NCBI GenBank assembly: GCA_963765675.1
Contig: CAVXXK010000001.1
Location: 384,001-448,000 of the forward strand
Length of the DNA stretch: 64,000 nucleotides
Direction of reading: 5' to 3'
Origin: an uncultured delta proteobacterium
GTDB lineage: Bacteria; Desulfobacterota; Binatia; Binatales; Binataceae
Below are positions 4,318 through 31,046 of the stretch, one piece after another (position 1 is the stretch's first letter; the number at the start of each line of letters is the position of its first letter). Below the pieces are notes generated by a model. The model searched no databases, was not told the DNA's origin, and saw only the letters and a program-made list of their open reading frames with translations. The translations under genes and the position numbers were made by a program.

Positions 4318-5691
4318 TTACAGGATGTAGCGCGAGAGGTCCTCGTCCTTGAGGATCGGGTCCAGGTGGGCGTGGACGTAGCCCGCGTCGATAGTCAGAT
4401 CGCGATCGCCCAGCTCGGGCGCGTTGAAGGAGATCTCTTCGAGCAGCCGCTCGAGGACGGTGTGCAGGCGCCGTGCGCCGATATTTTCAGTCCGGTCGTT
4501 GACCTGTGCGGCGATCTCCGCCAGCGCGGCCACCGAATCATCGGTGAAAGTGAGCCGCAGCCCCTCGGTCGCCATCAGCGCCACGTATTGCCGTGTCAGC
4601 GAATTTTCAGGCTCGGTCAGGATGCGGATAAAGTCCTCGCGCGCGAGCGCCTTCAGCTCAACGCGAATCGGAAAGCGACCCTGGAACTCGGGAATCAGGT
4701 CGGAGGGCTTACTGGTATGAAACGCGCCCGACGCGACGAACAGGATATGGTCGGTGCGAATCGCGCCGTACTTGGTGTTGACGGTCGAACCCTCGACGAT
4801 CGGCAGCAGGTCGCGTTGCACGCCCTCGCGCGAAACGTCGGGTCCGCGGCCCGCCTCGCGTCCCGCGATTTTGTCGATCTCGTCGATAAATACAATGCCC
4901 GACTGCTCGGCGCGATTGATCGCCTCGTGCGCGACCGCCTCCATATCTACGAGCCGCGCGGCTTCTTCCTGGGTCAGAATCTCGAGCGCTTCGGGAATTT
5001 TCACCTTCCGATGATGCGTCTTCTTGGGCATGATCTGGCTCATCAGGTCCTTCATGTTGAAGCCCATCTCTTCCATGCCCTGCGGTGTAAACACCTCGAC
5101 CATCGGAGTCGCGTTGGCCGAGACCTCGATCTCGACCTCGCGTTCATTGAGATGCCCCTGCGCGAGCAGCTTGCGCAACTTCTCGCGCGTGTCGCGATGC
5201 GAATCGCTTTCGGCCGCTTCGAGATGGCCGTCGGGAGTGATACTTGCCGGGCGGCGCGCTTTCGTCGGCGGCGGAAACAGCAGGTCGAGCAGCCGTTCTT
5301 CAGCATTCTCGCGCGCCTTCACTTTGACGCGGCTGCGCTCTTCCTCCCGCACCATCTTGACCGAGATTTCCGCGAGGTCGCGGATCATCGACTCGACATC
5401 GCGTCCGACGTACCCGACTTCGGTGTAACGCGAGGCTTCCACCTTGACGAACGGCGCCTGCGCGAGCTTTGCCAGGCGGCGCGCGATCTCCGTCTTGCCG
5501 ACGCCGGTCGGGCCAATCATCAGGATGTTCTTGGGAGCGATTTCGTCGCGCAGATCGGGCGCGACGTTCTGCCGCCGCCATCGGTTGCGCAGCGCGATCG
5601 CGACCGCGCGTTTGGCGTCATGCTGACCGACGATATACCGATCGAGTTCGGAGACAATCTCGCGCGGGGTCATTACCTGTGGAACTGCCAT
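4318..5691 (-). CDS. hslU: ATP-dependent protease ATPase subunit HslU
   Basis: [12 protein letters not shown]-terminus, GPTGVGKT Walker A, FIDEIDK Walker B, DLSRYIL C-terminus. Confidence 0.97.
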
Positions 5692-5770
5692 CGTATGGTT
5701 TGCGAATAAATCCGCGTGGGCGGCCTTTGCGCTCCGCGCCTTAAAGACTAATCGCGATTTGGCCGCGTGC

Positions 5771-6304
5771 CTATAACTCTTCGATAATAAATTGGTCGTT
5801 GGTGTAGACGCAGAGTTCGGACGCGATCTTGAGCGACGCTTCCGCGATCTGCCGGGCCGACAGGCCCGTGTTGTGCCGCAAAAGCGCGCGCGCCGCCGAA
5901 AGCGCGAAGTTCCCGCCCGATCCGATCGCCAAAATGCCGTCGTCGGGCTCGATCACGTCACCCACCCCCGACAGGAGTAGCGAGCTTTCGGCGTCGGCAA
6001 CGATCAGCATCGCCTCGAGCCGACGTAGAACCCTATCGGTGCGCCAATCCTTGGCCAGCTCGACCGCGGCGCGCCTCAGCACGCCGTTGTACTCCTGGAG
6101 CTTGCTCTCGAATTTATCGAACAGCGTAAGTCCATCAGCGGTCGAGCCGGCGAAGCCCGCCAGCACGCGGTCTCCGTGAAGACGACGCACCTTGCGCGCC
6201 CCGCTCTTCATGATAGTCGGTCCGGCGCTGACTTGGCCGTCCCCGCCCATCACGACCTTGCCTTCGTGGCGGACGCTCAGAATCGTTGTGCTGCGGATTT
6301 TCAT
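5771..6304 (-). CDS. hslV: ATP-dependent protease peptidase subunit HslV
   Basis: TTI catalytic Thr, [14 protein letters not shown] and CVYTN motifs. Confidence 0.97.
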
Positions 6305-6333
6305 TTTTCCTTCAGGCGTCGCTCGCGCGTTTC

Positions 6334-7242
6334 TTATGCGCGCGGATGCGAGCTCCGGTAAACCTTCTTGAGATGGTTTATGCTGACATGCGTGTAGCGC
6401 TGCGTGGTCGCGAGACTCGCGTGCCCGAGCATCTCCTGGATCGAGCGCAGGTCGGCGCCATTACCCAGCATATGCGTTGCGAACGAATGACGCAGCCCGT
6501 GCGGGGTCAGCGCGATCGGTACGCCCGCGCGGGTGATTCGATCGCGCACGATATTTTCGACGCTGCGGGTCGTCAGCCGCGCGCCGCGCAAGTTTACGAT
6601 CACGGGACCATCCGCCTCCCACGCGATCGGCATCACGCGCCGCCACGCGATTAGCGCGTCGAGCGCGGGATCTCCGATCGGCACCACGCGATCCTTGTTG
6701 CCTTTGCCCGAACGCACCGTCAGCATCCCGATTTCTTCGTCGATATCACGCCAGTTGAGGCCTACCAGCTCGCTCACGCGGATCCCGGTCGAGTAGAGCG
6801 TCTCGATTATCGCGCGATCGCGAAGCGCGGCGGCCGTATGCAGGTCGGCGTCGAGGTCGATCAATTTCCCTACGTCTTCCTGCCCCAGGACCAGAGGTAG
6901 ATGCCGCTCCGAGCGCGGCGAGCGCATCGTGCGCGTGGGGTTGTCGGCAGCGCCGGCGTTCTCGCGGTAGCGGAAAAACGCCTTGGCAGCGCTGAGCCGC
7001 CGCTGCACCGTCGCGCGCTGATATTTCTTTGTATTGATCATATTCGACAGCCATGCGCGAATGTGGTCGGCCGTGATCGACGCGGGATCGACTTCATCTT
7101 CCTTTCGCCCGAGCACCGCCGCGCGCTCGAGCATGAAGCTGCGCAGCGCCATCAGGTCGCGCCGGTAATTATCAACGGTATGCGCCGAGGCGCGTGCCGC
7201 GTGCGCGAGCGCGGCGGCAAACGCCTCGATCGCGTCCAGCAT
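6334..7242 (-). CDS. xerC: Tyrosine recombinase XerC
   Basis: [28 protein letters not shown] and [12 protein letters not shown] motifs. Position upstream of hslVU is typical of xerC. Confidence 0.88.
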
Positions 7243-7344
7243 TGTCTCGCGCGCGGGTGCCACAGCGGCTATGCTATCAGTGGCGAAGTGCTTGAAAAAG
7301 CGCGGTTTTCCGGACCGGGGCCGGGACGCATCGCGGGGCGCGCG

Positions 7345-7620
7345 ATGAACTGTTTCTTCTGTGGCGGTGAAATCGAGGTTCGCGAGCGCGTGAGCTTTCG
7401 CGAGGTCTGTCCCGGATGCGGCCGTGCACAGCATGCGTGCCGAAACTGCGGATTTTACGATCCGGCGTACAATAATCAGTGCCGGGAGCCGATGGCGGAT
7501 CGGGTGGTCGATAAGGAACGCTCGAACTTTTGCGAGTACTTCACTCCGACGAAAAACCGCGCCGTCGCGAAACCGGTCTCGACGCGCAAAGCACTGGACG
7601 AGTTGTTCAAGAAGAAATGA
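7345..7620 (+). CDS. Small Cys-rich (zinc/Fe-S ribbon-like) hypothetical protein, 91 aa
   Basis: MNCFFC...CPGC...HACRNC...QCRE...NFCEYF, 8 Cys; stop overlaps the next start (ATGA). Confidence 0.75.
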   Translation: MNCFFCGGEIEVRERVSFREVCPGCGRAQHACRNCGFYDPAYNNQCREPMADRVVDKERSNFCEYFTPTKNRAVAKPVSTRKALDELFKKK

Positions 7621-8051
7621 TGCCACGGTCACGAGCTAAGAATCGCCGCGCAGGGTTGGGCTCTTTGATGCTCGCGCTTGCGGTCGTCGTTCTCGCCGCA
7701 TCCTCCTGCACCAAGTTCAACAGCCCGCGCGGCGTGGTCGATCGCTTCATCACCGCGCACTACATGGCGATCGATCTGAAAGCCGCCGAGCCGCTATGCA
7801 CCGGGCTGGCGCTCGACAAGCTGCATCAGGAAATGAAACTGACCCAGGGTCAGGCGATCGACGAAACCACGCGCAAGCCTGTCATCCACTACAAGCTCAA
7901 GGCGGAGCGCGACGCTCCCGACCATATCCAGTATGTGTTCCTCGCGACGATCGACGTACCCGAAGGCGGCTCGTTCAAGAAGAATTGGATGATCTCCGCG
8001 CGCAAGGAAGGCGAGACCTGGAAGGTCTCCGACTTCAACGAGTACGACTAG
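7617..8051 (+). CDS. Putative lipoprotein of unknown function
   Basis: Basic N-terminus, hydrophobic stretch and LAASSC lipobox-like Cys; coupled to the upstream ORF. Confidence 0.65.
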   Translation: MMPRSRAKNRRAGLGSLMLALAVVVLAASSCTKFNSPRGVVDRFITAHYMAIDLKAAEPLCTGLALDKLHQEMKLTQGQAIDETTRKPVIHYKLKAERDAPDHIQYVFLATIDVPEGGSFKKNWMISARKEGETWKVSDFNEYD

Positions 8052-8067
8052 CGAGTACGACTAATCG

Positions 8068-9537
8068 ATGGCGCAAGATTCGCGCATAGGGAAAGGCGGC
8101 CTCGCCGCGATCGTGCTCGCTGCCGGACTCGGCACCCGGATGCGCTCGGCGCGGGCCAAGGTTCTGCACGAGATCGGCGGCAGCGCGATGGTCACGCGAG
8201 TCATCCGCGCGCTCGAGGCGGCGGGCGCCGCGCCGATCGTCGCCGTCGCCGGCTATCAGGCGCGCGACGTTGAGGCCGCTGTGCGCAATGCCGCCGCTAG
8301 TGCGCAGATTGCAATCGCGATTCAGGCCGAGCCGCGCGGCACCGGCGACGCCGCGCGCTCAGGCATTGGCGCGACTCCGCCGGACTACGCCGGTGACGTA
8401 CTGATCGCATACGGCGACATGCCGATGCTGACCGCGGCGACGCTTTCTGCGTTCATCCGTGCGCATTACGAAAGCGGCGCGGCGCTGTCGTTCATCAGCG
8501 TGGTCCTCGATAACGGCGGCGCGTACGGGCGAGTGCTCCGCGACGCTGACGGAGCGGCGCTCGCGATCGTTGAGGCGCGCGACGCGTCGCCGGCGGAACT
8601 CGCGGTCCGTGAAATCAACACCGGAATCTATATTGCACACGCAGGCTTTCTGCGCGCGGCGCTTGCCGGCCTCCAACCAAAGAACGCGCAGCATGAATTT
8701 TATCTGACCGATATTGTCGCGTCGGCGCGCAAGCGCGGACTCGCGGTCCAGGCGTGGCGGGCGCGGGACGCGGCGGAATTCGCGGGCGTGAACACGCGCG
8801 AGGAGTTGGCATCGATGGAAACCGTACTTCGTGACCAGGTGAACCGGCGGCTGATGGCGGCGGGAGTGACGTTCGTCGATCCCGCTTCGGCGTATATTTC
8901 CGACCAGGCGGAGATCGCCGCCGACGTGATCATCGGACCCAATGTGCAGATTCTCGGGCGATGCCGCGTTGGCGCGGAGACCAGAATCGAGGGCACCGCG
9001 TGGCTGAAGGACGTCGAGATCGGCGAGCGATGCCATATCAAGCTGGGCGTTCGCGCCGAGGAGTGCCGGATCGGCGCGGACTCGGAGATCGGACCATTCG
9101 CGAATCTGCGCGCTGGGACTGACCTCGAGGGGCACAATCGCATCGGCAATTTCGTCGAAACCAAAAAGGCAAAAATCGGACACGGCACCAAGGCCAGCCA
9201 TCTGAGTTACCTGGGCGACGTGACGATCGGCCGCGACACCAACGTCGGATGCGGCGTGATCACCGTCAACTATGACGGCTACGAAAAGCACGCCACCCAG
9301 ATCGGCGACCGCTGCATGATCGGATGCGACACCCAGCTAGTCGCGCCAATCAAGGTCGGCAACGACGCGTACGTCGCCTCGGGCACGACAATTATCCGCG
9401 AGGTTTCCGATGGCGCGCTGGTGATGTCGAATCATCCGCAACGCGAAAAACCCGGCTGGACCGCAACCTGGCGCAAACGCCACGGCGACAACGGCACTGG
9501 CTCGACGAGTCACGCATCCAAGCCCTCCGGCAAATGA
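8068..9537 (+). CDS. glmU: Bifunctional UDP-GlcNAc pyrophosphorylase / glucosamine-1-phosphate acetyltransferase
   Basis: LAAGLGTRMRS, EINTG, EFYLTD, hexapeptide repeats, GNFVETK, HLSYLGD and NYDG motifs. Confidence 0.96.
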   Translation: MAQDSRIGKGGLAAIVLAAGLGTRMRSARAKVLHEIGGSAMVTRVIRALEAAGAAPIVAVAGYQARDVEAAVRNAAASAQIAIAIQAEPRGTGDAARSGIGATPPDYAGDVLIAYGDMPMLTAATLSAFIRAHYESGAALSFISVVLDNGGAYGRVLRDADGAALAIVEARDASPAELAVREINTGIYIAHAGFLRAALAGLQPKNAQHEFYLTDIVASARKRGLAVQAWRARDAAEFAGVNTREELASMETVLRDQVNRRLMAAGVTFVDPASAYISDQAEIAADVIIGPNVQILGRCRVGAETRIEGTAWLKDVEIGERCHIKLGVRAEECRIGADSEIGPFANLRAGTDLEGHNRIGNFVETKKAKIGHGTKASHLSYLGDVTIGRDTNVGCGVITVNYDGYEKHATQIGDRCMIGCDTQLVAPIKVGNDAYVASGTTIIREVSDGALVMSNHPQREKPGWTATWRKRHGDNGTGSTSHASKPSGK

Positions 9538-9564: not shown

Positions 9565-10443
9565 GTGCGGCAGATTTCTCGCCGAAAGCTGCTGATCGCC
9601 TCGTTGCTCGCCGGGCCGGCTCTGTTGAGTTTTCGGGCTGCTGCCGATGATCAGGACGCAGAGTTGCGACGCAGAGTTGCCGATCTCGAACGGAGGCACG
9701 GTGGCCGGCTTGGCGTCGCGGTTCTCGATACCGCGAGGATGAAGCTGATCGCACATCGTGGTGACGAGCGCTTTCCCATGTGCAGCACGTCCAAGTTTCC
9801 AACCGCCGCATTCGTCATGGCGCGGGTTGATCACAAGCAGGAGAGCCTGGGCCGCCGGATCGTCTATTCGAAGGATTACCTGGTTCCGTATTCCCCGGTC
9901 ACCGAGAAGCACGTCGGCGGCGACGGACTGACCGTCGGCGAAATCTGCGGAGCGGCACTGACCCTCAGCGACAACACGGCAGAGAACCTGCTCCTGGACA
10001 CCTTCGGCGGGCCGGCGGCATTGACGGCCTACCTCCGCTCGCTTGGAGACAGGGTCACTCGGCTCGACCGGCGTGAACCGGAGCTGAACACAGCCATCCC
10101 CGGCGATCCGCGCGACACCACTACTCCGATCGCGATGCTGGAAATCCTGCACAAGATCATCCTCGGTACCGCGCTATCGGCCTCCTCTCGCGAGCAACTG
10201 ACCGCGTGGATCGTCGCAAGTAAGACCGGCGACAAGCGCTTGCGCGCAGGCATGCCAAAAGGTTGGCGCGTCGGAGACAAGACCGGCTCCGGGCCGAACA
10301 ATGTAACGAACGACATCGCCGTCGCATGGCCGCCAGCGCGCGCACCAATAATCGTGACGGCCTACTATGCTGGCGCTCGCGCATCGGATGACGAGCGGAA
10401 TGCGATCCTGGCAGAGGTCGGCCAACTCGCGCTGACGGTTTGA
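9565..10443 (+). CDS. bla: Class A serine beta-lactamase with Tat-type signal peptide
   Basis: SRRKLL twin-arginine signal; SxxK (STSK), SDN, omega-loop EPELN and KTG motifs all intact. Confidence 0.93.
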   Translation: MRQISRRKLLIASLLAGPALLSFRAAADDQDAELRRRVADLERRHGGRLGVAVLDTARMKLIAHRGDERFPMCSTSKFPTAAFVMARVDHKQESLGRRIVYSKDYLVPYSPVTEKHVGGDGLTVGEICGAALTLSDNTAENLLLDTFGGPAALTAYLRSLGDRVTRLDRREPELNTAIPGDPRDTTTPIAMLEILHKIILGTALSASSREQLTAWIVASKTGDKRLRAGMPKGWRVGDKTGSGPNNVTNDIAVAWPPARAPIIVTAYYAGARASDDERNAILAEVGQLALTV

Positions 10444-10516
10444 GGCCATCTGTCACTCGGCGAGTTCTCGGCGCTCCTTGGATATAGTCCATCCAACGCC
10501 ACCCAAAATGCCGCGC

Positions 10517-10545
10517 TTGTACCATCCTGCGCGGGCGGGGATAAT
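10517..10545 (+). promoter_or_regulatory. Putative sigma70 promoter for the ribozyme-glmS transcript
   Basis: TTGTAC-N17-GATAAT, about 75 nt upstream of the ribozyme cleavage site. Confidence 0.55.
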
Positions 10546-10613
10546 CTTTGGTAAGGGAAACGAAGCCCGAATTTCTATCGAGGTGATGGTCGAGCTGATT
10601 CAACGCATAGGAC

Positions 10614-10766
10614 GAGAGTAGCGCCAGGACTCGGATTGTATTCGCAATCCGAGTTGACGAGGTGGAAGCTTCATCGAAAGATTCGGCGGATGGCTTCCCG
10701 GTTCCACGGCCGAAAAAGGCGAACAAACCACGCGGGTGACCGCGTGACAAAAGCCGCCTTGAGTGG
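10614..10766 (+). ncRNA. glmS ribozyme (GlcN6P-activated self-cleaving riboswitch)
   Basis: A^GCGCCAGGACU cleavage motif (cut between 10620 and 10621); P1 GACUCGGAUUG/CAAUCCGAGUU; GACGAGG; P2 GGAAGC/GCUUCC; AUCGAA...UUCGGCGGAUG core; P3 CGGUU-CCAC-GGCCG; P4 with GUGA loop and ACAAA bulges; P3.1 CCAC/GUGG. Lies upstream of glmS. Confidence 0.95.
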
Positions 10767-10937
10767 CAGGGCAAGATGCCCTGACGAAGATTAAACTCTC
10801 CCGCTTTGATCATCCCCTTCGATTCCGGATCGCACGGACGCGACGAGCGCGGCTCGTGGCTCTCGTGATTCCCGAAACTGCCGCGCAAAAGTGCGGCGCA
10901 ACGCTATCTCTGCAACTGATGCGGAGGGGGAATCATT

Positions 10938-12771
10938 ATGTGTGGAATCATCGGATACGTCGGAGCGGATGAGGCCTATCCCATCCTGATTGAAGGGTTG
11001 GCTCGCCTCGAATACCGCGGCTACGACTCGGCCGGCGTCGCGACAATCGTGCAGAACGGCAAGCTCGAGATTCGCCGCGCGGCCGGCAAGCTGGCCAATC
11101 TGCGCACGCGTCTCGCCGACGCTCCGCTTGGCGGCCGGATCGGAATCGGACACACGCGCTGGGCCACCCACGGCCGCCCGTCCGAGGAGAATGCACATCC
11201 GCACAAGGCCGGCCCGGTCGCAGTGATTCACAACGGAATCGTCGAGAACTATCTTGAGCTGCGCGCCGCGCTGCTCGCGCGCGGCCATCAGCTTCGCTCG
11301 CAAACCGACACCGAGCTGATTTCTCATCTGATCGAGGAACGGATCAAGGCGGGACTCGGGCTGACTGAGGCGGTCAGACGCTCGGTCGGCGATCTGCGCG
11401 GCTCATTCTCGATCGTGGTCTTGTCGGAGACCGAGCCCGGCAAGCTGGTCGCGGCGAAGACCGCGACTCCGCTGGTTCTTGGACTTGGCGAGGGCGAGAA
11501 TTTCGTCGCGTCCGATATTCCCGCGATCCTGAACCACACGCGCAGGGCGATCGTGCTCGACGACGGCGAGCTGGCGGAAATCACCGCGCATAGTGTTCGA
11601 ATCATGAAGTTCGACGGCACGCCCGTCACGCGGACGCCGCGCCATATCGAATGGGACGCCGTCGCCGCAACCAAGGGCGGTTTCAAACACTACCTGCGCA
11701 AGGAGATAAGCGAGCAGCCGCAAGCATGGATCGACACGCTGGCCGATCGCGCGATCGCTGGATCATCAGAGGTCCGCTTCGACGAGGAGCTTCTGCCCGC
11801 CGGCGGCCCCGGACTCGATCGGGCGAATCGTGATGGTGAGCGAAGGGGCGTCGTGGATCACGGCGAATATCGGGAAATACATGATCGAGGAGCTGACCGG
11901 AATTCCGGTCGAGGCCGACTTCGCCTCGGAGTTCCGCTACCGCCGCGCGCCGATAGATTCGCGCACCATGATGATCGCGATCTCTCAGTCGGGCGAGACT
12001 GCCGACACTCTGGCCGCGATGGAGGAAGGCATCCGGCGTGGCGCGCACGTGATCGCGCTGACTAATACTCTCGATTCGTCGATCGCGCGGCGCGCGCACG
12101 CGCGGCTGTACACGCGATGCGGTCTCGAGATCAGCGTGACTACGACCAAGTGCTTCATCACCCAGGTCGAGGCTTTCTATCTGTTCGCGATTCATCTCGC
12201 TGCCCGGATGGGGCGCCTTAACGCCGCCGAGGCCGAGGCGCTGCTGGCACCGGCGTTCGCGATTCCCGCGCAGATGAAAGCGATCTTCGCGCTCGAGCCC
12301 GAGATCGAGCGGATCGCGCGCACCTACGCGTCCGCGCGCGATTTCATCTATATCGGCCGCGGGATCAATCATCCGGTCGCGCTCGAAGGCGCGCTCAAGC
12401 TGAAGGAGATCTCTTACATCCACGCCGAGGGCTTTCCCGCGGGTTTCATGAAGCACGGCCCGATCGCGCTGATCGACGAGTCGGTTCCGGTCGTGGTGCT
12501 GATTCCCAACGATGACCTGTTCGACAAGATGCTCTCGAACCTGCGCGAGGTTGAATCGCGCGGCGGAAAGATTATCGCCGTGACCGACCGCGCCACCGAC
12601 GAGCTGCGCTCAGTCGCAACCGAGGTACTCGAGCTTCCGGCGACCAACCGGATGCTCACGCCGGTGCTGATGACTATTCCGCTGCAACTGCTCGCCTACC
12701 ATGTGGCGGCGGAGCGCGGCACCGATATCGACCAGCCGCGCAACCTCGCGAAATCGGTGACGGTCGAGTAG
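10938..12771 (+). CDS. glmS: Glutamine--fructose-6-phosphate aminotransferase; one apparent +1 indel near 11807-11810
   Basis: MCGIIG start, HTRWATHG, SQSGETADT, KLKEISY and PRNLAKSVTVE end. ORFs 10938-12065 and 11830-12771 join if one C of a CCCC run is removed. Confidence 0.93.
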
Positions 12772-12846: not shown

Positions 12847-14146
12847 TTACGGCGCCGCGGCGACCATCGCCTTTACCGTGCAGAAGTCCTTGTCCACCGC
12901 GCCCATGTTGATGTACCAGCATTCGCGCTCGGGCGTGTTCTGGCCGGGCAGATAGCACATCGTCGAGATTCCGCCCTCCATGTCGACTCGGCTGGCGCCG
13001 ACTACGAACTCGCGCTTGAACGGATAGATCGCCACGCGAGCGTCCGGCACCGGCCGGTCGCGATAGGCCAGCCAATAGATATTCGAGCGCCAGAGTTGAC
13101 CCTGTCGATCGTAGGTATCGACCAAGGGATCAAACCACACTTCGCTGTCGATGTAGATGATCGAGTTCTTGTCCAGCGCGCCGCCCGCCTGGCCAAGATC
13201 GCGGCGCGGGGTCGCGTTGATGACGTAGACGTGGCGCATCTCCCAATCTTCCGGGCACGCCGAGGCGCCACCGTCGGTCGGGCAGGTGACCTCCGGAGAA
13301 TGCTTGGCATGCACGCTCATCAGCATCTCCTTGTCGCCCAGGAATTTGTAGTCATAGAACTCGGTCTTGGCGTTGAAGCCGGAATAGTGATCCGGATCAA
13401 ACTGCTGCGTCCCGGTCGCCGAGCTCAGGATCGCCTCGTTCAACCGGCGCACGCGCCGGGTGCCGGGGTTCCAGTCCCACGAGTCGTCGCCGCGCTTGGG
13501 ATCCATGTACCGATAACGGATTAGTCCCTCTCCGTACGCATCCGCCGGCGCGAGAATCGGATACAGCGCAAACAGCCACATCCGGCCCGTGATCTTGAAG
13601 TCCGGGTCCGTCGGCAGCGGCTCGACCTCGGTGCGTCCGACCAGCGAATAGCCCGCGTAATGGCCGACCCAGATGTCGTTGATGATATGCTGGGACTGGC
13701 CGGGGCGTACGTACTGAATCTGGCAATCGTAGAAGCGCAGATCGTAGTCGTCGGTCTGAATCGGACGGAACACGTTATTCCACATCACCTTGTTGGCGAC
13801 GTAAGGATCGTTCGAATCGATCAGCGGAAACGGCTGTCCCGCGACGTATCCGATGAGCGAACGATGGTCGCTGGTCAGGCGCACCTGCGCGGAATACTTT
13901 TCGGTCGCGTCCTTGTACGGCGGCGGCCAATCGATCCGCTGAGTCGGCACGATGTCCATCTGCATCCCGTGCGTGACCATGTAATAAACGCCGGGGCCGA
14001 CGACATCCTTGACCTGTGTCGCGTTCTGCGGGGTGATTACATCCCCCGGTTTGACTGTGGCTGACGCGAGCGGACGTAGCCGCGAAGACCGCGAGGATCG
14101 CGACCGCGCCAGCGAGCGAGACTCTGGCTAACACCCGCTTGAGCAT
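12847..14146 (-). CDS. DUF1329-family exported protein, copy 1 (frameshift near 14060-14090)
   Basis: GQPFP, WNN, WNPGTRRVRR and DTYDRQGQLWR motifs. GGAGG RBS and signal peptide MLKRVLARVSLAG lie in a different frame from the mature part. Confidence 0.78.
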
Positions 14147-14312
14147 CCAAGAAACCTCCTCGAGCAAAGAAAAATCATGCTTTCGGCAATCCTATCATGT
14201 GAAGCCCACAAGACTTACCCGCCGCACGTTAGAATGCGCACGAAAAATCTTCCTTACACGCATTAGGTACGATTGCCGAGGCGGATCGGATTGAATGTCA
14301 GGCGGAATCAGC

Positions 14313-14353
14313 AAAAAAGCAGGCGGCGCGGAGCCTTTTTTGCCCCGCGCCGC
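14313..14353 (-). terminator. Intrinsic terminator of DUF1329 copy 2
   Basis: GCGGCGCGG/CCGCGCCGC stem followed by a U-tract on the minus strand. Confidence 0.6.
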
Positions 14354-14387
14354 TGGTGTGCGCACAAAACTGAAATCAGAATTTACT

Positions 14388-15686
14388 TCACGGCGCCGCG
14401 GAAACCATCGCCTTCACCGTGCAGAAGTCTTTATCGACCGCGCCCATATTGATGTACCAGCACTCGCGCTCCGGCGTGTTCTGGCCGGGCAAATAGCACA
14501 TCGTCGAGATTCCGCCCTCCATGTCCACCCGATCGGCGCCCACCACGAATTCGCGCTTGAACGGATAGATCGCCACGCGCGCGTCTGGCACCGGCCGGTC
14601 CCGATACGCCAGCCAGTAGATATTCGAGCGCCAGAGCTGTCCCTGCCGATCGTAGGTATCAACCATCGGGTCGAACCAGACTTCGCTGTCGATGTAGATG
14701 ATGGATTCCTTGTCCAACGCTCCGCCTGCTGCGCCCAGGTCGCGCCGCGGCGTCGCCTGGACCACGTACACGTGACGCATCTCCCAGTCTTCCGGACACG
14801 CCGACGCGCCGCCGTCAGTCGGACAAGTGACCTCGGGAGAATGCTTCGCGTGCACGCTCATCAGCATCTCCTTGTCGCCCAGAAATTTGTAGTCATAGAA
14901 CTCCGTCTTGGCGTTGAACCCAGAGTAGTGATCCGGATCGAACTGCTGCGTTCCGGTCGCCGAGCTCAGGATCGATTCGTTGAGCCGGCGCACGCGACGG
15001 GTTCCCGGAGTCCAGGTCCACGAGTCGTCGCCACGCTTGGGATCCTCGTAGCGGTAGCGAATCAGGCCGGTGCCATAAGCGTCCGCCGGAGCGAGAATCG
15101 GATATAAAGCGAACAGCCACATCCGGTTAGTGATCTTGAAGTCAGGATCAGTCGGCATCGGTTCGACCTCGGTACGTCCAACCTCCGAATAACCTGCGTA
15201 GTGCCCCACCCAGATCTCGTTGATGATGTTATGCGACTTGCCGGGGCGGATGTACTGAATCTGGCAGTCGAAGAAGCGCAGGTCATAGTCGTCGCTCTGG
15301 ATCGGACGGAACACGTTGTTCCACATCACCTTGCTCGCGACGAAAGGATCGTTCGCGTCGATGAGCGGAAATGGCTGCCCGGCCACGTATCCGATGAGCG
15401 ATCGATGGTCGGTGGTCAGGCGGACCTGCGATGAGTACTTCTCGGTCGCGTCTTTGTACGGTGGCGGCCAATCGATCCGTTGGGTCGGTACGATATCCAT
15501 CTGCATCCCGTGCGTGACCATGTAATAGACACCGGGAGTGACGACATCCTTGACCGATGTGGCGTTGGCGGGAGTGATTACTTCTCCCGGTTTCACAGCC
15601 GCCTGGGAGCATAGCGATCCGGCGACGATGAGAAACATCGCTAACGCTCCAGTAAGAATACCTCTGGTCAGCACCCGGTTGAGCAT
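14388..15686 (-). CDS. DUF1329-family exported protein, copy 2
   Basis: Same motifs as copy 1 and nearly identical in the C-terminal half; start MLNRVL after GGAGG; signal peptide. Confidence 0.82.
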   Translation of the reverse strand: MLNRVLTRGILTGALAMFLIVAGSLCSQAAVKPGEVITPANATSVKDVVTPGVYYMVTHGMQMDIVPTQRIDWPPPYKDATEKYSSQVRLTTDHRSLIGYVAGQPFPLIDANDPFVASKVMWNNVFRPIQSDDYDLRFFDCQIQYIRPGKSHNIINEIWVGHYAGYSEVGRTEVEPMPTDPDFKITNRMWLFALYPILAPADAYGTGLIRYRYEDPKRGDDSWTWTPGTRRVRRLNESILSSATGTQQFDPDHYSGFNAKTEFYDYKFLGDKEMLMSVHAKHSPEVTCPTDGGASACPEDWEMRHVYVVQATPRRDLGAAGGALDKESIIYIDSEVWFDPMVDTYDRQGQLWRSNIYWLAYRDRPVPDARVAIYPFKREFVVGADRVDMEGGISTMCYLPGQNTPERECWYINMGAVDKDFCTVKAMVSAAP

Positions 15687-15821
15687 CCGAGAAACCTCCA
15701 TAAGACAAAGTATCTGTTTAGATTAGTGTTGATCTATTGAGCCGTAATTGCTTCCGAAAAAATCTAATGCTCGGATTAGCGCAGGTTGTCCTCGCCGCAG
15801 CTGTTGCGTTGTTTTGCGCTC

Positions 15822-15861
15822 AAAAAGGAAACGGCGCGAAGGATTGTCTCCTCCGCGCCGT
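15822..15861 (-). terminator. Intrinsic terminator of DUF1329 copy 3
   Basis: ACGGCGCG/CGCGCCGT stem plus U-rich tract on the minus strand; homologous to the other two terminators. Confidence 0.55.
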
Positions 15862-15893
15862 CGGTTATCAGCAATTTTACGATCAGGCTGTCG

Positions 15894-17192
15894 TCACGGA
15901 GCCGCCGCGACCATCGCCTTCACCGTGCAGAAATCCTTGGACACCGCACCCATGTTGATATACCAGCATTCGCGCTCCGGCGTATGCTGTCCCGGCAGAT
16001 AACACATCGTCGAGACGTTGCCCTGCACGTCGATCGACGCCGCTCCCACCACGAACTCGCGCTTGAACGGATAGACCGCCACGCGCGCGTCCGGCACCGG
16101 CCGATCGCGATAGGTCAGCCAGTAGATGTGCGCGCGCCACAGCTGCCCCTTCTGGTCGTAGGTGTCGATGTACGGCTCGAACCACGCTTCGGCGTCGAGG
16201 TAGATCACCGTGTCGCGATCCAGCGCGGTTGGCGCACCCTTGCGGTCGCGGCGAGGGATCGCGTCGACGATATACATCCGCCGCATCTCCCAGTCCTCCG
16301 GGCATGCCGTCCCGCCGCCGTCATAGGGGCAGGTCATTTCGGGCGAGTGTGCCGCATGAACGCTGGCCAGCAGCTCGCGCTGCCCGAGGAACCGGTAGGT
16401 GTACTGTTCGGTCTTCGGGTTGAAGCCGGAATAGTGATCCGGGTCATAGGTCTGCGTGCCGGTCGCCGAGCTCATCATCGCTTCGTTGAGACGGCGCACG
16501 CGGCGCGTTCCAGGCTGCCAATCCCAACTGTCGTCGCCCTTGTCGGGATCGGCATAGCGCCACCGGATGAGCCCCTGCCCGCGCGACTCTTCCGGCGAAA
16601 GAATCGGATAGAGCGCGAACAGCCACATCCGCCCCGTGGTCCGGTAGTCCGGATCGATCGGGAGCGGATCAACTTCCGTGCGCCCGACCAGATCGTAACC
16701 GGCGTAGTGCCCGATCTCGATATCGTCGATAATCCGCTGCTCCTGTCCCGGCTTGATGTACTCGGTCTGGCAATCATAGAAGCGCAGATCGTAGTCGTCG
16801 GTCGAGATTGGGCGAAACACGTTGTTCCACACGAGCTTGATCGCGATGTCGGGATCATTCGCGTCGATCAACGGAAACGGCTGCCCTGCCACGTAACCGA
16901 CCACCGTGCGATGGTCTTCGCTGAGCCGCACCTGGCCCGAGTATTTCTCGGTCGCCTCGCGGTATGGCGGCGGCCATTCGATCACGTCCGGCGCGACGAT
17001 ATTCATGCGCATCCCGTGCGTGACGGCGTAATAAACGCCGGGCGATACGAGCTGCCTGACCTGAGTTGCGTTTTGCGCCCCGATCACTTCCCCCGGCTTC
17101 ACCGCGGCCCGTGCCCCCGCCGACGCAATCATCAGTGAAGCGAGACAGGATGCGACCGTACAAAGCGTCTGTCCCCATCTACGCTTTAACAT
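15894..17192 (-). CDS. DUF1329-family exported protein, copy 3 (most divergent)
   Basis: Same motifs as the other copies; signal peptide ending ARA; C-terminus DFCTVKAMVAAAP identical to copy 1. Confidence 0.82.
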   Translation of the reverse strand: MLKRRWGQTLCTVASCLASLMIASAGARAAVKPGEVIGAQNATQVRQLVSPGVYYAVTHGMRMNIVAPDVIEWPPPYREATEKYSGQVRLSEDHRTVVGYVAGQPFPLIDANDPDIAIKLVWNNVFRPISTDDYDLRFYDCQTEYIKPGQEQRIIDDIEIGHYAGYDLVGRTEVDPLPIDPDYRTTGRMWLFALYPILSPEESRGQGLIRWRYADPDKGDDSWDWQPGTRRVRRLNEAMMSSATGTQTYDPDHYSGFNPKTEQYTYRFLGQRELLASVHAAHSPEMTCPYDGGGTACPEDWEMRRMYIVDAIPRRDRKGAPTALDRDTVIYLDAEAWFEPYIDTYDQKGQLWRAHIYWLTYRDRPVPDARVAVYPFKREFVVGAASIDVQGNVSTMCYLPGQHTPERECWYINMGAVSKDFCTVKAMVAAAP

Positions 17193-19421: not shown

Positions 19422-21569
19422 CTATTCATACCGGAGCGCGTCGATTGGATGGAGCAGCGAGGCTTTGCGGGCTGGGTAGTAGCCGAAGAAGACGCCGACT
19501 GCCGCCGCGAAGATGAAGCCGCCGGCGATCGACGTGGGGGATACCAGCGTCGGCCATCCTGCCAGCGCTGAAATCAGTTTCGACGCCACGATCCCAAGGA
19601 TCGCGCCCGCGATTCCGCCGAGCGCGCTCAGCAGCACCGCTTCGACCAAAAATTGCAGCAGGATATGTATCCGCCGCGCGCCGATCGCCATCCGGATTCC
19701 GATCTCGCGCGTGCGCTCGGTCACCGAAACCAGCATGATATTCATGATTCCGATTCCGCCGACCAGCAGCGAAATCGACGCGACCGCGGCCAGCAGGATC
19801 GTCATCACGCCGCTCTGCTTTTCCGACGCCTGCGCGATTTCATTCAGGCTGCGCACCGTGAAATCGTCATCCTGGCCGGGCTGGATATGATGATGCCGAT
19901 GCAGCGATTTGCGTGATCTCGCTCATCGCTGCATCGACCTCGGCCGCGCTCTTGGCCTGCACATAGATCAGGTTGACGACCCCGGTGATTTTCGGCGGCG
20001 CTCCGAATGGGCTGACCTCGGCGGTGGCGAGCTGTAGATCGAATTGGCGGTCGGCAGGCCGTGTAAGGATTCTCGACCGTCGGGGTGGCGGTGGCGACCG
20101 CGACCGAAGTAGAGGGCGCCGACACTCCAAGCACTTTGCGCTCCGCAGTCTCGAACGGGATCAGCACGATATCGTCCTGATCCTGCCCCCATTGCGACTG
20201 GCCTTTGACCGAGAGCACGCCGATTACCCGCAGCGGAAAATTCTTGACCCGCACCATCGCCCCGACCGGATTTTGCTGTTCGCCAAAAAGATTGTTCGAC
20301 CACCGTCTGGCCGAGCAGCAGACCGGTGCGGCGGTCTGGTCGTCCTCATCGGTCATCGCGCGGCCCGAGGTCACCGGCCATTCACGGATATTCTGATATT
20401 CGGCGGTGATTCCTTCGATACTGGTACTCCAGTTCGGTTTCCGTTGACGATCTGCGCGATTTGCCGGTCCATATAGCTTACGCGTGAGGATCGCGCGCAC
20501 TTCCTTGCGGATCGCGAGCGCGTCGTCCGGTCGTTGAGGGTCGAAGTCGAGCCGAAGCCGCGCGCGGACGCCGTTGGAAGTCGTCGCGCCGGGCAGTACC
20601 ACGATCAAATTGGTGCCGAGGCTCTGGAGTTGCGCCTGCACCGAGGCGCGCGCCCCGTCTCCGACCGCGACCATCGCGATCACCGCCGCCACACCAATAA
20701 AGATGCCGAGCATCGTCAGCGCCGCGCGCATCTTGTTGCGGCGCAGCGCACGTGGCCGCCGCAGATCACCGCCATCGCGGCAAAGGTCAGCGCCTCATCG
20801 GCGGAAGAGGTGATGTTGCCGGGTGTCGTCCACGTGCGAGCGCCGGGCGCGGCTGTCCCGATGATCGGCATGCGGCGCGCCGGGTTTGCGCACGTCCGAG
20901 ACTACCTGCCCGTCGCGAAAGCTTATCGTGCGATCTGCGTATGCGCCGACATCGGGATCGTGCGTCACCAGGATTATCGTGATGCCCTGCTCGCGGTTGA
21001 GCCGCGTGATGATCTCCATGATTTCGGTGGAGCTGGTCGAATCGAGGTTTCCAGTCGGCTCGTCGGCCAGCACGATCGACGGCTGATTGATTAGCGCCCG
21101 CGCGATCGCGACCCGTTGCTGTTGTCCGCCCGAGAGCTGGTTGGGATGGTTCTGCGCGCGCCCGGTCAGCCCCACCAGCTTGAGCAGTTCTTCGGCGCGA
21201 TGCTCCCTGTGATGGTTCCATGCGGAATAGAACAGCGGCAGTTCGACGTTTTCGAGCGCACTGGTGCGTGCGAGCAGGTTGAAGCTCTGAAACACGAATC
21301 CGATTCTGCCGGCTCCGGATCGCCGCGAGATCTTCTTCGGCCAGGGCGGCCACGTCCTCACCTTCGAGCAGGTAGCGCCCTCGCGTGGGCCGATCCAGGC
21401 ATCCGAGGATATTCATCAGGGTCGATTTCCCCGACCCCGACGCACCCATCACCGCCACGAACTCGCCCCGATCGATAGTAAGCGACACTCCGCGCAGTGC
21501 GTTAACCTCGACCTCGCCCAGCACGTAGGTTTTCCAGAGATCAACCAATTCGATGACTGGCATCGTCAT
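19422..21569 (-). pseudogene. macB: MacB-type ABC transporter (ATPase plus permease, probably fused) broken by multiple frameshifts; pseudogene or sequencing errors
   Basis: [58 protein letters not shown] and ALRYE are spread over several frames. Confidence 0.8.
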
Positions 21570-21641
21570 TGTTCCTGCGAGACTAATGCGGGAAATGCAG
21601 GGCACGGTGCGCTTGGCGCTCTGGGCATCTGGATTCGTCGG

Positions 21642-28674: not shown

Positions 28675-30991
28675 ATGAACCAATACCAGGAAATCTCGCG
28701 CCAGTTTTACGAGAACCGGCTTCTGTTCGGCGATCCCGCCGACGCCGGGATCGTCGCGCTCGAAATCGCGTCGCCGACTGAAATCGAAGTCTTCAAACGG
28801 ATCGGAGGCAAGATTGTCCAGGAGCGCCGCCCGCTCGAATTGTTTGTCCTGCTCGATGATCTCGCGCTTTTGAACGGCTTCAAACCCGCGGTCGATACGC
28901 GCGAGCTCGCCGGAGATTTCCGCTACCGGCATCTCGTGAGGTTCAACTCGGGCGACACGCTCGAAGCGTTGAAGTGGCATCTGCGCGATACCACCGGCAT
29001 CGCGGCGAACGCGCCCGGCGCGCCCTACCTGGTCTTCGCCGATCCGGTCGAACAGCATCTGATGCTCACCGGATCGACCTGCTTTATGGGGCTCGAGCTC
29101 GGCGACCTGGTGCGGATGCAGATCGATATCGAGACCTACATCTCGAAGGGCTTCGAGTTTCCCTCCGCCGCGCGCGAGGGCGACCGCGTCGTCGCAATCT
29201 CGATCTCCGACTCGACCGGCTTCGAGCGCCTGCTGCGCGGCAACGAGATGGACGAGCGCGCGATGCTCGAAGAGCTGGTGCGCGTCGTGGCCGAGCGCGA
29301 CCCCGACGTGATCGAGGGACACAACCTGTTCCGCTTCGACCTCGAATATCTCGAGACCCGCGCGCGGCGTCATCGCGTGAAGCTCGCGCTCGGGCGCGGC
29401 GGAGGTGTGTTGCGCGCGCGACCGTCGCGGCTCCAGATCGCGGAACGATCGATCGCGTACCGGCGCTACGACATCCCCGGCCGCAACATTATCGACACCT
29501 GGATCCTCGCGCAGCATTACGATATCGCCAGCCGCGAGCTCGAAGGCTTCGGACTTAAGCAGCTCGCGATTCATTTCGGTCTCGCGCGCAAGGAGCGGGT
29601 TTATCTCGACGCCTCGCGCGTCAGCGAGATTTTCGATCGCGATCCCGAGCGCCTGTTCGAGTACGCACTCGACGACGTGCGCGAGACTCGCGCGCTGGCC
29701 GAGGTGCTGTCGCCAAGCTACTTCGTGCAGGCCAAGATTTTTCCCTACTCGTACCAGAACGTCGTCCTGCGCGGGAACGCGACCCGAATCAACGCGCTTC
29801 TGATACGCTCGTATCTGGCCGCGGGCCACTCGATTCCCGAGCCGCAGAATTCCGCGGCCGTCGCCGGCGGATACACCGAGATGCGCCGATGCGGCGTCGC
29901 ACGCGGAGTTGCGCACTGCGACGTGACCTCGCTGTATCCCTCGCTGATGCTTCAAAATGGTCTCGCGCCCGGCTCGGACCGGCTGGGCGTGTTCCTGAAA
30001 CTGCTCGGCGACTTGCGCACGTTTCGGGTGAAGGCCAAGAGCCTCGCGCGCGAGCTCGAAGGCGCCGAGCGGCGCAACCTCGAGGCGCTGCAGCAGACCT
30101 TCAAGATTCTGATCAACTCGTTTTATGGATACCTCGGTTTCGGGCTCGGCCATTTCAACGACTTCGAGCAGGCGGGCAACGTCACCCGCCGCGGCCGCGA
30201 TCTAATCCAAAGCGCCGTCGCGCAGCTCGAAGCGCAGGGGGCGCAGGTGATCGAAGTCGATACCGACGGGATCTATTTCGTGCCGCCGGTATCGGCCGCG
30301 AGCGATAGCGAGGTTGAGGCGATAGTCGCGAACCTCGAGATTCCCGCAGGGATCAAGCTCGAAATCGACGGACGCTATGCCGCGATGTTCTCCTACAAGA
30401 TGAAGAACTACGTCTTGATGGACCACGCAGGCGCGATTACGGTGCGCGGCTCGGGACTCAAGTCGCGAGGGCTCGAACGCTTTCAGCGCCGCTTCATGGA
30501 AGAAGATTTTCGTGCTCCTGATGAGCGATCGGCGAGCGGAAATTCCGAAACTGTTCGAGGATTGGTACGGGCGCTTCGCACGTCACGAAGTCGGCATCGC
30601 GGATTTCATGAAGACCGAGACGCTGCAGGACTCGCTCGACAACTATCGCCAGAAGATTTCGGGGAGCCGCAGAAATCTTTCGGCCGCATACGAGCTCGCA
30701 CTCAAAGCCGAACGGCCCTATCAGAGCGGCGACCAGATTTCCTATTACGTTGTCGGCCGCACCGATCGGGTCAGGGTCGCAGAGGCCGCCAAGATGGCGT
30801 CGGAATACGACCCCGCCAATCCCGACGAAAACGTCGCCTACTATCAATCCAAACTCGCCGACCTGTACGAAAAATTTCGTCCGTTTATCGAACGGCCAGG
30901 CCTGTTCGTACCGGAACCGGAACAAGAATCCGGCCAGCAAGAACTCTTCGCGACGCCCGCCAAATCCCCCGATCAGGATTCCGTCGAGTAG
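28675..30991 (+). CDS. polB: Family B DNA polymerase with 3'-5' exonuclease; +1 indel near 30503
   Basis: Exonuclease motifs DIET, GHN..FD and YALDD; polymerase motifs DVTSLYPS, KILINSFYGY, DTDG and K.Y. The C-terminus continues in ORF 30512-30991. Confidence 0.88.
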
Positions 30992-31046
30992 CGAATCGCG
31001 CTTGCGGGTTAGTTCGAGATTTGACGGCTCTCGATGCTTAATGAGT

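Follow-up and report, generated by a model that had tools for sequence, protein, structure and literature searches.

The 64,000-nucleotide stretch of DNA studied here (positions 384,001 to 448,000 of contig CAVXXK010000001.1, assembly GCA_963765675.1, from an uncultured delta proteobacterium of the Binataceae; referred to below as the window) carries a glmS ribozyme in the leader of glmS, the gene of glutamine--fructose-6-phosphate transaminase. Comparison with Rfam confirmed the RNA at 10609-10771 as a canonical member of family RF00234. We consider it probable that in this diderm host the RNA acts as a glucosamine-6-phosphate (GlcN6P)-activated ribozyme, and that its cleavage hands the glmS message over to decay by RNase J. 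Our confidence in the family assignment taken by itself is much higher than in this complete chain.

Identification of the Ribozyme

When the window was scanned with cmscan against Rfam 15, RF00234 was the only match above its gathering threshold. The match lies on the forward strand, scores 92.9 bits (gathering score 37, E 2.9e-20), covers model positions 1-167 of 167 and is not truncated. A search of the whole genome (4.5 Mb in 16 contigs) returned the same score and a single copy. The original prediction had placed a complete glmS ribozyme at 10614-10766, an interval that lies inside this match. Alignment to the Rfam consensus puts the predicted cut between A10620 and G10621 (A-1/G+1) in the context GUA^GCGCC, at the very position proposed earlier and 317 nt ahead of the glmS start codon. 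All consensus positions written in capitals (AGCGCC, GACGAGG, AUCGA and UCGGCGGAUG) are matched in full by the window ribozyme, and helices P1, P2/P2a, P3, P4/P4.1 and the P3.1 pseudoknot are each present and paired. The window RNA thus has every feature of RF00234 that can be read from a sequence, with GlcN6P-dependent cleavage standing as a prediction.

The gene downstream is glmS, as had been expected. Its ATG is found at 10938, 166 nt past the end of the Rfam match, and its predicted product begins with MCGIIGYVG. The gene is frameshifted, and both halves have NCBIfam matches, which cover residues 1-276 of the first open reading frame (ORF) and profile positions 291-607 in the second. There is no second glmS in the genome. 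In the named Binataceae loci, all 10 ribozyme matches out of 10 are located upstream of glmS.

Conservation and Covariation of the Ribozyme Core

We aligned 35 Binataceae ribozymes representing at least 12 genera, with genome G010 left out. The blocks AGCGCCAG, ACGAGG and ATCGA...TCGGCGGAT show no variation in the 35 sequences, while the helices vary. The first base of GACGAGG changes from G to A in 5 of the 35 rows; otherwise, the core blocks are invariant. Pair statistics were calculated on the Rfam-derived structure plus P3.1, with 500 shuffles and alignments whose 3′ partners had been slid by 1-3 columns serving as controls. Of 1293 cells, 96.9% are paired, and changes on both sides are seen in 17 of the 39 pairs. 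The observed pairing and covariation were reached by none of the 500 shuffles, and the slid controls were 35-42% paired. P3.1 is paired in 100% of 34 distinct rows, two of which are compensatory (G-C in G008 and U-A in G048) and one of which has a wobble.

These data bear on the possibility that the element is a conserved structured leader but no longer a GlcN6P-dependent ribozyme, i.e., that it is inactive, ligand-independent or has taken up another role, such as that of a processing site or a stability element. There is a precedent for this in two predicted Fusobacterium glmS ribozymes that were inactive under the conditions tested, according to the passage devoted to them in PMC10099748. 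However, the score of the window RNA is canonical (92.9 bits, compared with 37-88 bits in a Chloroflexota sample), its core consensus positions are all retained and do not vary among at least 12 genera, its helices are upheld by compensatory change, and the element is always ahead of glmS wherever both are visible. Loss of the ribozyme function therefore appears very improbable to us.

Additional Helices P0 and P5

Extension of the alignment 45 nt downstream of the Rfam match revealed two helices. P5 is a 3′ hairpin that directly follows the downstream strand of P3.1. Each of its six pairs shows change in both partners, pairing holds in 94.1% of cells across 34 distinct sequences, and its 3′ half falls outside the Rfam match. 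The second helix, P0, is formed by the bases immediately upstream of the predicted cut and a strand within the conserved motif AAACUCUCC. This motif is present 22-37 nt past the Rfam match in 35 of 35 loci (for L035 it was read from the alignment), and AAACT is invariant in the extended alignment around it. The six core pairs of P0 are formed in 203 of 204 cells. Two separate genera have double changes, AAGAGU/ACUCUU in G013 and GAAAGU/ACUUUC in G047 (an A-U pair in each case), and a G-U wobble is present in G021. Two further outer pairs found no support, being unpaired in 25-27 of 34 rows. According to the alignment, P0 encloses the ribozyme as a whole and retains the strand that would leave upon cleavage.

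To our knowledge, neither P0 nor P5 is part of the published glmS ribozyme consensus. We saw no AAACUCUCC motif in the 15 Chloroflexota leaders inspected. A P0-like helix was detected in 0 of 30 Chloroflexota ribozymes at p 0.05 in a crude shuffle test; the test has low power, as only 3 of 9 Binataceae controls passed it.

Putative Promoter and Leader of glmS

The original prediction had placed a promoter upstream of the ribozyme. A strict sigma-70 scan of 10200-11100 returned no sites; a promoter-like element conserved in the genus is nevertheless present (Table 1). When nine genomes of the genus were aligned, alignability was found to start abruptly at TTGTAC 10517. A counterpart of this element (TTGAAC or TTGTGC, a 17-nt spacer and NATAAT) is situated 50-76 nt before the cut in the majority of other genera. 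Among 29 loci scanned, the best element has 8-9 of 12 matches at this distance in 23, and in the other six it is weaker or differently placed. Judging by the position of this element, the transcript would start near 10552-10554.

The 5′ leader contains a Shine-Dalgarno-like purine tract (GAGGTGATGG at 10580-10589), and GAGGTGA/GGAGGT-like tracts recur ca. 30-45 nt ahead of the cut in most genera. The purine tract and the CU-rich tract of the 3′ leader can form 10 bp, including three G-U pairs, the complementarity being located at 10585-10594. The leader between ribozyme and ATG ranges from 123 to 384 nt across loci. An ATG at 10585 opens an 11-codon frame (10585-10623, forward strand) whose stop codon TAG spans the cut site and which is in frame throughout the genus. 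With only 2 nt between the Shine-Dalgarno-like tract and this ATG, the small frame is likely a coincidence.

Table 1. Features of the glmS locus (positions in the window)
Feature	Position	Strand	Basis
glmS ribozyme core (P1, P2/P2a, P3, P3.1, P4, P4.1)	10609..10771	+	RF00234 match and covariation
Predicted self-cleavage site, A^G	10620..10621	+	Rfam consensus alignment; A12-G19 of the match invariant in 35 sequences
P1	10628-10655	+	Rfam structure
P2/P2a	10664-10698	+	Rfam structure
P3	10699-10712	+	Rfam structure
P4/P4.1, GUGA loop at 10736-10739	10716-10760	+	Rfam structure
P3.1 pseudoknot	CCAC 10704-10707 with GUGG 10763-10766	+	Pairing in alignment
P5, extra 3′ hairpin CAGGGC-AAGAU-GCCCUG	10767..10783	+	Directly after P3.1 strand; covariation
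P0 5′ strand GAGAGU, positions -7 to -2	10614..10619	+	Complementary to ACUCUC 10795-10800
P0 3′ strand ACUCUC, inside conserved motif AAACUCUCC	10795..10800	+	Complementary to GAGAGU 10614-10619
Promoter-like element: -35 TTGTAC 10517-10522, 17-nt spacer, -10 GATAAT 10540-10545	10517..10545	+	Genus conservation
Purine tract GAGGTGATGGTCGAG, Shine-Dalgarno-like, 5′ leader, before the cut	10580..10594	+	Recurrence across genera; putative role
CU-rich tract TTTGATCATCCCCTTCG, 3′ leader	10805..10821	+	Complementary to 5′-leader purine tract and glmS Shine-Dalgarno; putative role
glmS Shine-Dalgarno GGAGGGGG	10923..10930	+	7 nt ahead of ATG 10938; kept in genus
glmS (glutamine--fructose-6-phosphate transaminase), two frames	10938..12771	+	NCBIfam TIGR01135/NF001484
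glmU	8068..9537	+	TIGR01173, 491.9 bits vs cut-off 366.85

The glmS Frameshift and the Integrity of the Locus

An extra base near 11813 splits glmS into ORFs 10938-12065 and 11830-12771. This base is present in no close relative of the BLAST alignment shown, and the glmS frames of relatives are open, coding for 611-651 amino acids wherever a contig contains the whole gene. A contig of a related strain from a public run (ca. 91% identical), which extends across 11813, also has no extra base. The extra base adjoins a CGATCG/GATC site. Two other genes of the window, both on the reverse strand, are broken as well: that of a MacB-type permease is frameshifted near 19850-19920 (ORFs 19844-20731 and 19422-19856), and that of an ABC ATPase near 21361-21640, where the Walker-A part is in another frame upstream of ORF 20795-21361. 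Since three of the approximately 60 genes in the window are broken, residual indels of a long-read assembly are suggested, and the glmS frameshift is probably such an assembly error rather than a sign of a dead glmS.

One can also ask whether the locus is itself an artefact, i.e., a mis-binned or chimeric piece of Firmicutes or Chloroflexota DNA. The genome is a metagenome-assembled genome (MAG) with an estimated contamination of 4.32%, and the window has at least three frameshifted genes. Against this, the window lies inside contig C1, which extends for more than 2.1 Mb; the same locus is present in 67 other genomes of the family from many assemblies; the flanking glmU and glmS are Binataceae-like; and a contig from an unrelated public run spans 10514-10986 with two differences. 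The artefact is effectively refuted.

Host Lineage and Distribution of the Ribozyme

The nearest GlmS loci (94-98% identity for the nearest) belong to Candidatus Binataceae, Candidatus Binatus sp. and uncultured delta proteobacterium MAGs, and NCBI taxonomy places the Binataceae within Candidatus Binatota. Since BamA (611.5 bits) and LpxC (231.3 bits) are encoded in the genome, it is reasonable to take the host as a diderm expected to have an outer membrane with lipid A. The description of the host as a Binatota-like, deltaproteobacteria-like diderm, which had been put forward from the sequence, agrees with these data.

The survey of related genomes that had been recommended revealed the ribozyme in 10 of the 10 other genomes of the genus. 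In the family sample, which includes the genome of the window as well as G010, G108 and G157, 68 of 151 genomes have a match, 67 of them over the cut-off, and 12 of 30 genera are represented. Presence is almost all-or-none by genus (32/33, 10/10, 9/10, 5/6 and 3/3 in some genera versus 0/17, 0/13, 0/7 and 0/7 in others). The ribozyme was not found in 16 genomes from ten other families of the class, nor in 150 genomes sampled from the rest of the phylum.

Origin of the Element

In its C-terminal half, GlmS is 70-77% identical to that of the window within the family, with or without the ribozyme, 50-61% identical in other families of the class and 46-52% identical in Chloroflexota. The identity of N-terminal halves among the family is 72-83% and forms a continuous range, again with or without the ribozyme. 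In a maximum-likelihood tree of the C-terminal half (56 rows), the Binataceae are a single clade (100/100) next to the other families of the class. When placed on this tree, the ribozyme label requires two changes, namely a gain within a derived clade and a loss in G018+L031 (100/97); support for the clade of the gain is 94/95 for 20 rows and 85/30 for 21 rows. GlmS itself looks vertically inherited on these comparisons, whether or not a ribozyme precedes its gene. Transfer of the whole gene from Chloroflexota, whose GlmS gave the next-best matches after those of Binataceae, was considered and rejected: GlmS of other class families is closer, the tree groups the Binataceae with their own class, and Chloroflexota ribozymes match a Binataceae profile poorly.

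In 11 loci that have no ribozyme, two of which come from another family, the distance from the glmU stop to the glmS start is 3-56 nt. It is 137 nt in L125, a ribozyme-less locus of another family, and 485 nt in the ribozyme-less L031; in four ribozyme-bearing loci with an adjacent glmU (one of them that of G010), it is 384-521 nt. No ribozyme remnants were detected in eight ribozyme-less loci at E values up to 1, and the 485-nt gap of L031 gave no glmS ribozyme match at E values up to 10. Inverted repeats of ca. 30 nt flank a small ORF in this gap (L031:1625-2109, in a Binataceae MAG); the N-terminus of the ORF is GIY-YIG-like, and the whole looks like a small mobile insertion. The most economical reading of the comparisons is that the ancestor of a Binataceae sub-clade had a glmUS operon and that a promoter-leader-ribozyme module of ca. 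400 nt became inserted between its two genes.

Proposed Mechanism and Alternatives

A check for RNase J had been recommended along with the original prediction, and a full-length gene for the enzyme, uninterrupted by stop codons, is indeed present at G000:C6:158320-159948 (TIGR00649, 450.7 bits, cut-off 400). The genome also codes for RNase Y (685.5 bits) and for RNase E/G (508.3 bits). The question of how cleavage is turned into repression, which had been raised at the outset, is largely answered by the presence of RNase J, and since this enzyme is encoded, a Bacillus-type route is the likeliest. In Bacillus subtilis, as stated in the relevant parts of PMC3997798 and PMC10099748, GlcN6P is the cofactor of self-cleavage, and the downstream product with its 5′-hydroxyl is degraded by RNase J1. 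By analogy, ligand dependence, cut and decay route in Binataceae would be as follows. Transcription would proceed from the dedicated promoter with the -10 box at 10540-10545. GlcN6P, the product of GlmS, would upon its accumulation bind the pre-folded RNA as a cofactor, and self-cleavage would follow between A10620 and G10621. RNase J would then degrade the glmS-bearing downstream fragment from its 5′-hydroxyl end, and GlmS synthesis would drop, closing a negative feedback loop similar to that of B. subtilis. In a sample of the class, 39 of 41 genomes, ribozyme carriers and non-carriers alike, have an RNase J match above the cut-off, so the enzyme was already present when the ribozyme arrived.

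Several points weigh against this account. Both cleavage and its dependence on GlcN6P are predictions here. RNase J permits the mechanism without arguing specifically for it, since it is found in class genomes with and without the ribozyme alike. A search of public runs revealed no RNA run with the locus, the best run holding 0.23 of the sampled words. The core nucleotides of P2.1 and P2.2 (which we take to be the corresponding bases of the window RNA) are invariant in the 35 sequences, and these pairings are absent from the Rfam structure line; since the nucleotides never vary, covariation gives no information on them. If the frameshift were real, the gene controlled by the switch would be dead in this strain. 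For the insertion scenario, the underlying tree covers half the length of a single gene, the clade of the gain has the mixed support (94/95 and 85/30) given above, and no donor of the module was identified, the Chloroflexota sample included.

Cleavage might also, or mainly, repress translation, perhaps together with RNase J. According to this alternative, P0 and pairing between the purine and CU-rich tracts (10580-10594 with 10805-10821) would tie the 5′ leader to the 3′ leader; after the cut and loss of the 5′ fragment, the freed CU-rich strand would pair with the Shine-Dalgarno at 10923-10930 and block ribosome binding. The presence of P0 in 35 of 35 loci, with all but one of its 204 cells paired and two independent compensatory changes, fits such a scheme, as does the recurrence of the Shine-Dalgarno-like tract in most genera. 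The tract is complementary to CU-rich 3′-leader segments in the window, G016, L023, G068, G014 and G046; however, no special complementarity of 5′ and 3′ leaders is seen in G014, G047, G163, G087 and G021. Duplexes between cognate 5′ and 3′ leaders are slightly more stable than those between non-cognate leaders (-33.9 versus -31.9 kcal/mol, permutation p 0.046, 13 group representatives), though the loci are related and p-values for this reason overstate the case. A long 5′/3′ duplex might, moreover, retain the cut fragment and not release it. The idea that ACUCUCC is a co-evolving anti-Shine-Dalgarno was rejected: its energies with the cognate Shine-Dalgarno (-11.65 kcal/mol) are no better than with non-cognate ones (-11.35 kcal/mol, p 0.16).

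Folding calculations, like the duplex tests, support this alternative weakly. The minimum free energy fold of the 3′ leader alone is predicted to pair the CU-rich tract with the Shine-Dalgarno. In constrained partition-function folds of 34 loci, calculated with the core held unpaired, the mean unpaired probability of the Shine-Dalgarno was 0.26 in the uncleaved and 0.16 in the cleaved state. Ten loci showed a decrease of more than 0.1 and one an increase, but 23 loci changed by less than 0.1, and the Shine-Dalgarno is predicted to be mostly paired in both states. Constrained folds with a truncated 5′ leader gave decreased Shine-Dalgarno accessibility in 13 of 34 loci, increased in 4 and unchanged in 17; all such folds ignore pseudoknots and kinetics. 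Translational repression is compatible with the RNase J route, and we place it on the unlikely side.

A broader proposal joins this scheme to the origin of the element. It holds that a mobile promoter-leader-ribozyme cassette, equipped with P0 as a lineage-specific clamp and with a 5′ Shine-Dalgarno mimic that extends the pairing of P0, was inserted without a gene into glmUS, and that cleavage frees the CU-rich strand to sequester the glmS Shine-Dalgarno. We find it rather unlikely. If it were true, the glmS ribozyme would switch translation off and not merely expose a 5′-hydroxyl to RNase J.

Comparison with Known Systems

The well-studied glmS ribozymes of Firmicutes, including that of B. 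subtilis (Winkler et al. 2004 and Collins et al. 2007, as cited in the portion of PMC3997798 concerned with them), share with the Binataceae RNAs the full length of RF00234, the A^GCGCC context, helices P1-P4.1, P3.1 and the position in the glmS leader. The enzymes of the decay pathway, RNase J and RNase Y, are likewise encoded by the Binataceae host. In contrast to Firmicutes, this host belongs to a diderm candidate phylum (BamA, LpxC) and also has RNase E/G. The Binataceae RNAs further differ by the addition of P5 and P0, with the 3′ half of the former and the 3′ strand of the latter lying beyond the Rfam match, and by their ribozyme-to-ATG leader of 123-384 nt.

Chloroflexota also have RF00234 ahead of glmS (46 of 151 sampled genomes match, 37 of them over the cut-off). 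Many of their ribozymes, unlike those of Binataceae, are low-scoring variants with inserts (37-57 bits, 170-245 nt), and in many the core after the cut reads AGCGCA(U/A)G instead of AGCGCCAG. Against a profile built from Binataceae they score at most 43 bits, compared with 127-171 bits for Binataceae. Their GlmS proteins, 46-52% identical to that of the window, form a separate clade, and Chloroflexota are not evident donors. The Chloroflexota loci L147-L177 range from canonical ribozymes (ca. 88 bits) to 200-245-nt variants at 37-47 bits.

The glmS ribozymes predicted in Gram-negative Fusobacterium resemble the window RNA in being family members from an outer-membrane bacterium. They differ in that, by the account of them in PMC10099748, they did not cleave under the conditions tested, whereas the Binataceae RNAs score high, covary and are known from sequence alone. 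The same 2022 source, where it reviews the family, counts more than 450 known representatives of glmS ribozymes, five of them in Gram-negatives and none of those five verified.

In Enterobacteria, the descriptions given in parts of PMC4152352 and PMC2377431 concern a GlmY/GlmZ/RapZ system that, like the proposed Binataceae switch, lets GlcN6P feed back on the synthesis of GlmS in a diderm host, with the glmS message of a glmUS operon as the target. It operates through small RNAs that act in trans, together with an adaptor protein and RNase E. In Binataceae, by contrast, the control element is a ribozyme acting in cis, which separates glmS from glmU and provides it with a promoter of its own.

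Genomic Neighbourhood

A class A beta-lactamase gene (9565-10443, forward strand; NF033103, 335 bits against a cut-off of 200) is located between glmU and the ribozyme promoter. Sequences upstream of the promoter cannot be aligned in other genomes of the genus, so the beta-lactamase neighbour varies. Just upstream of glmU, a pair of hslU/hslV-like genes (an AAA_2 ATPase and a proteasome-type subunit) in 4318-7632 on the reverse strand adjoins a tyrosine recombinase of the phage integrase family (6334-7632). Directly past glmS, on the reverse strand at 12847-17192, there are three tandem DUF1329 paralogues (ORFs of 377, 437 and 432 amino acids). A family B DNA polymerase (PF03104, PF00136) is encoded at 28675-31041 on the forward strand, in a bacterial chromosome context.

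Novelty and Significance

The original prediction had suggested that a ribozyme in this lineage would extend the known range of the family. McCown et al. reportedly listed the phyla known to carry it in 2011 (RNA 17:728) and in 2012 (Methods Mol Biol 848:113). Our literature search retrieved no paper in which Binat* or Deltaproteobacteria are linked to the glmS ribozyme, or a riboswitch to Binatota, the sole record for Binat* being an unrelated paper on malaria; the supplements of the 2011 survey and the Rfam species list lay outside this search and might already hold such sequences. Since no paper that joins the two was found, it is plausible that the range of this RNA switch is extended to a candidate phylum and a diderm host, where it is apparently unreported. 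Diderm hosts in general are not new for the family, as follows from the portion of PMC10099748 on Gram-negatives.

A canonical glmS ribozyme is carried by at least 68 genomes from a candidate phylum that lives in soil; they make up a large and clean set in a diderm lineage. According to the same portion of that 2022 account (PMC10099748), no Gram-negative glmS ribozyme had been shown to cleave, and the Binataceae RNA offers a testable case. The locus would also be a tidy example of a riboswitch-ribozyme gained as an independent module, with the operon rewired around it and GlmS inherited vertically. Apart from the diderm set, the history of the module and the extra helices, the finding amounts to a wider range for an RNA that is already well understood. 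P0 and P5, and chiefly P0, which would hold the bases just 5′ of the scissile bond, provide a natural variant in which effects on folding, product release and translation may be studied.

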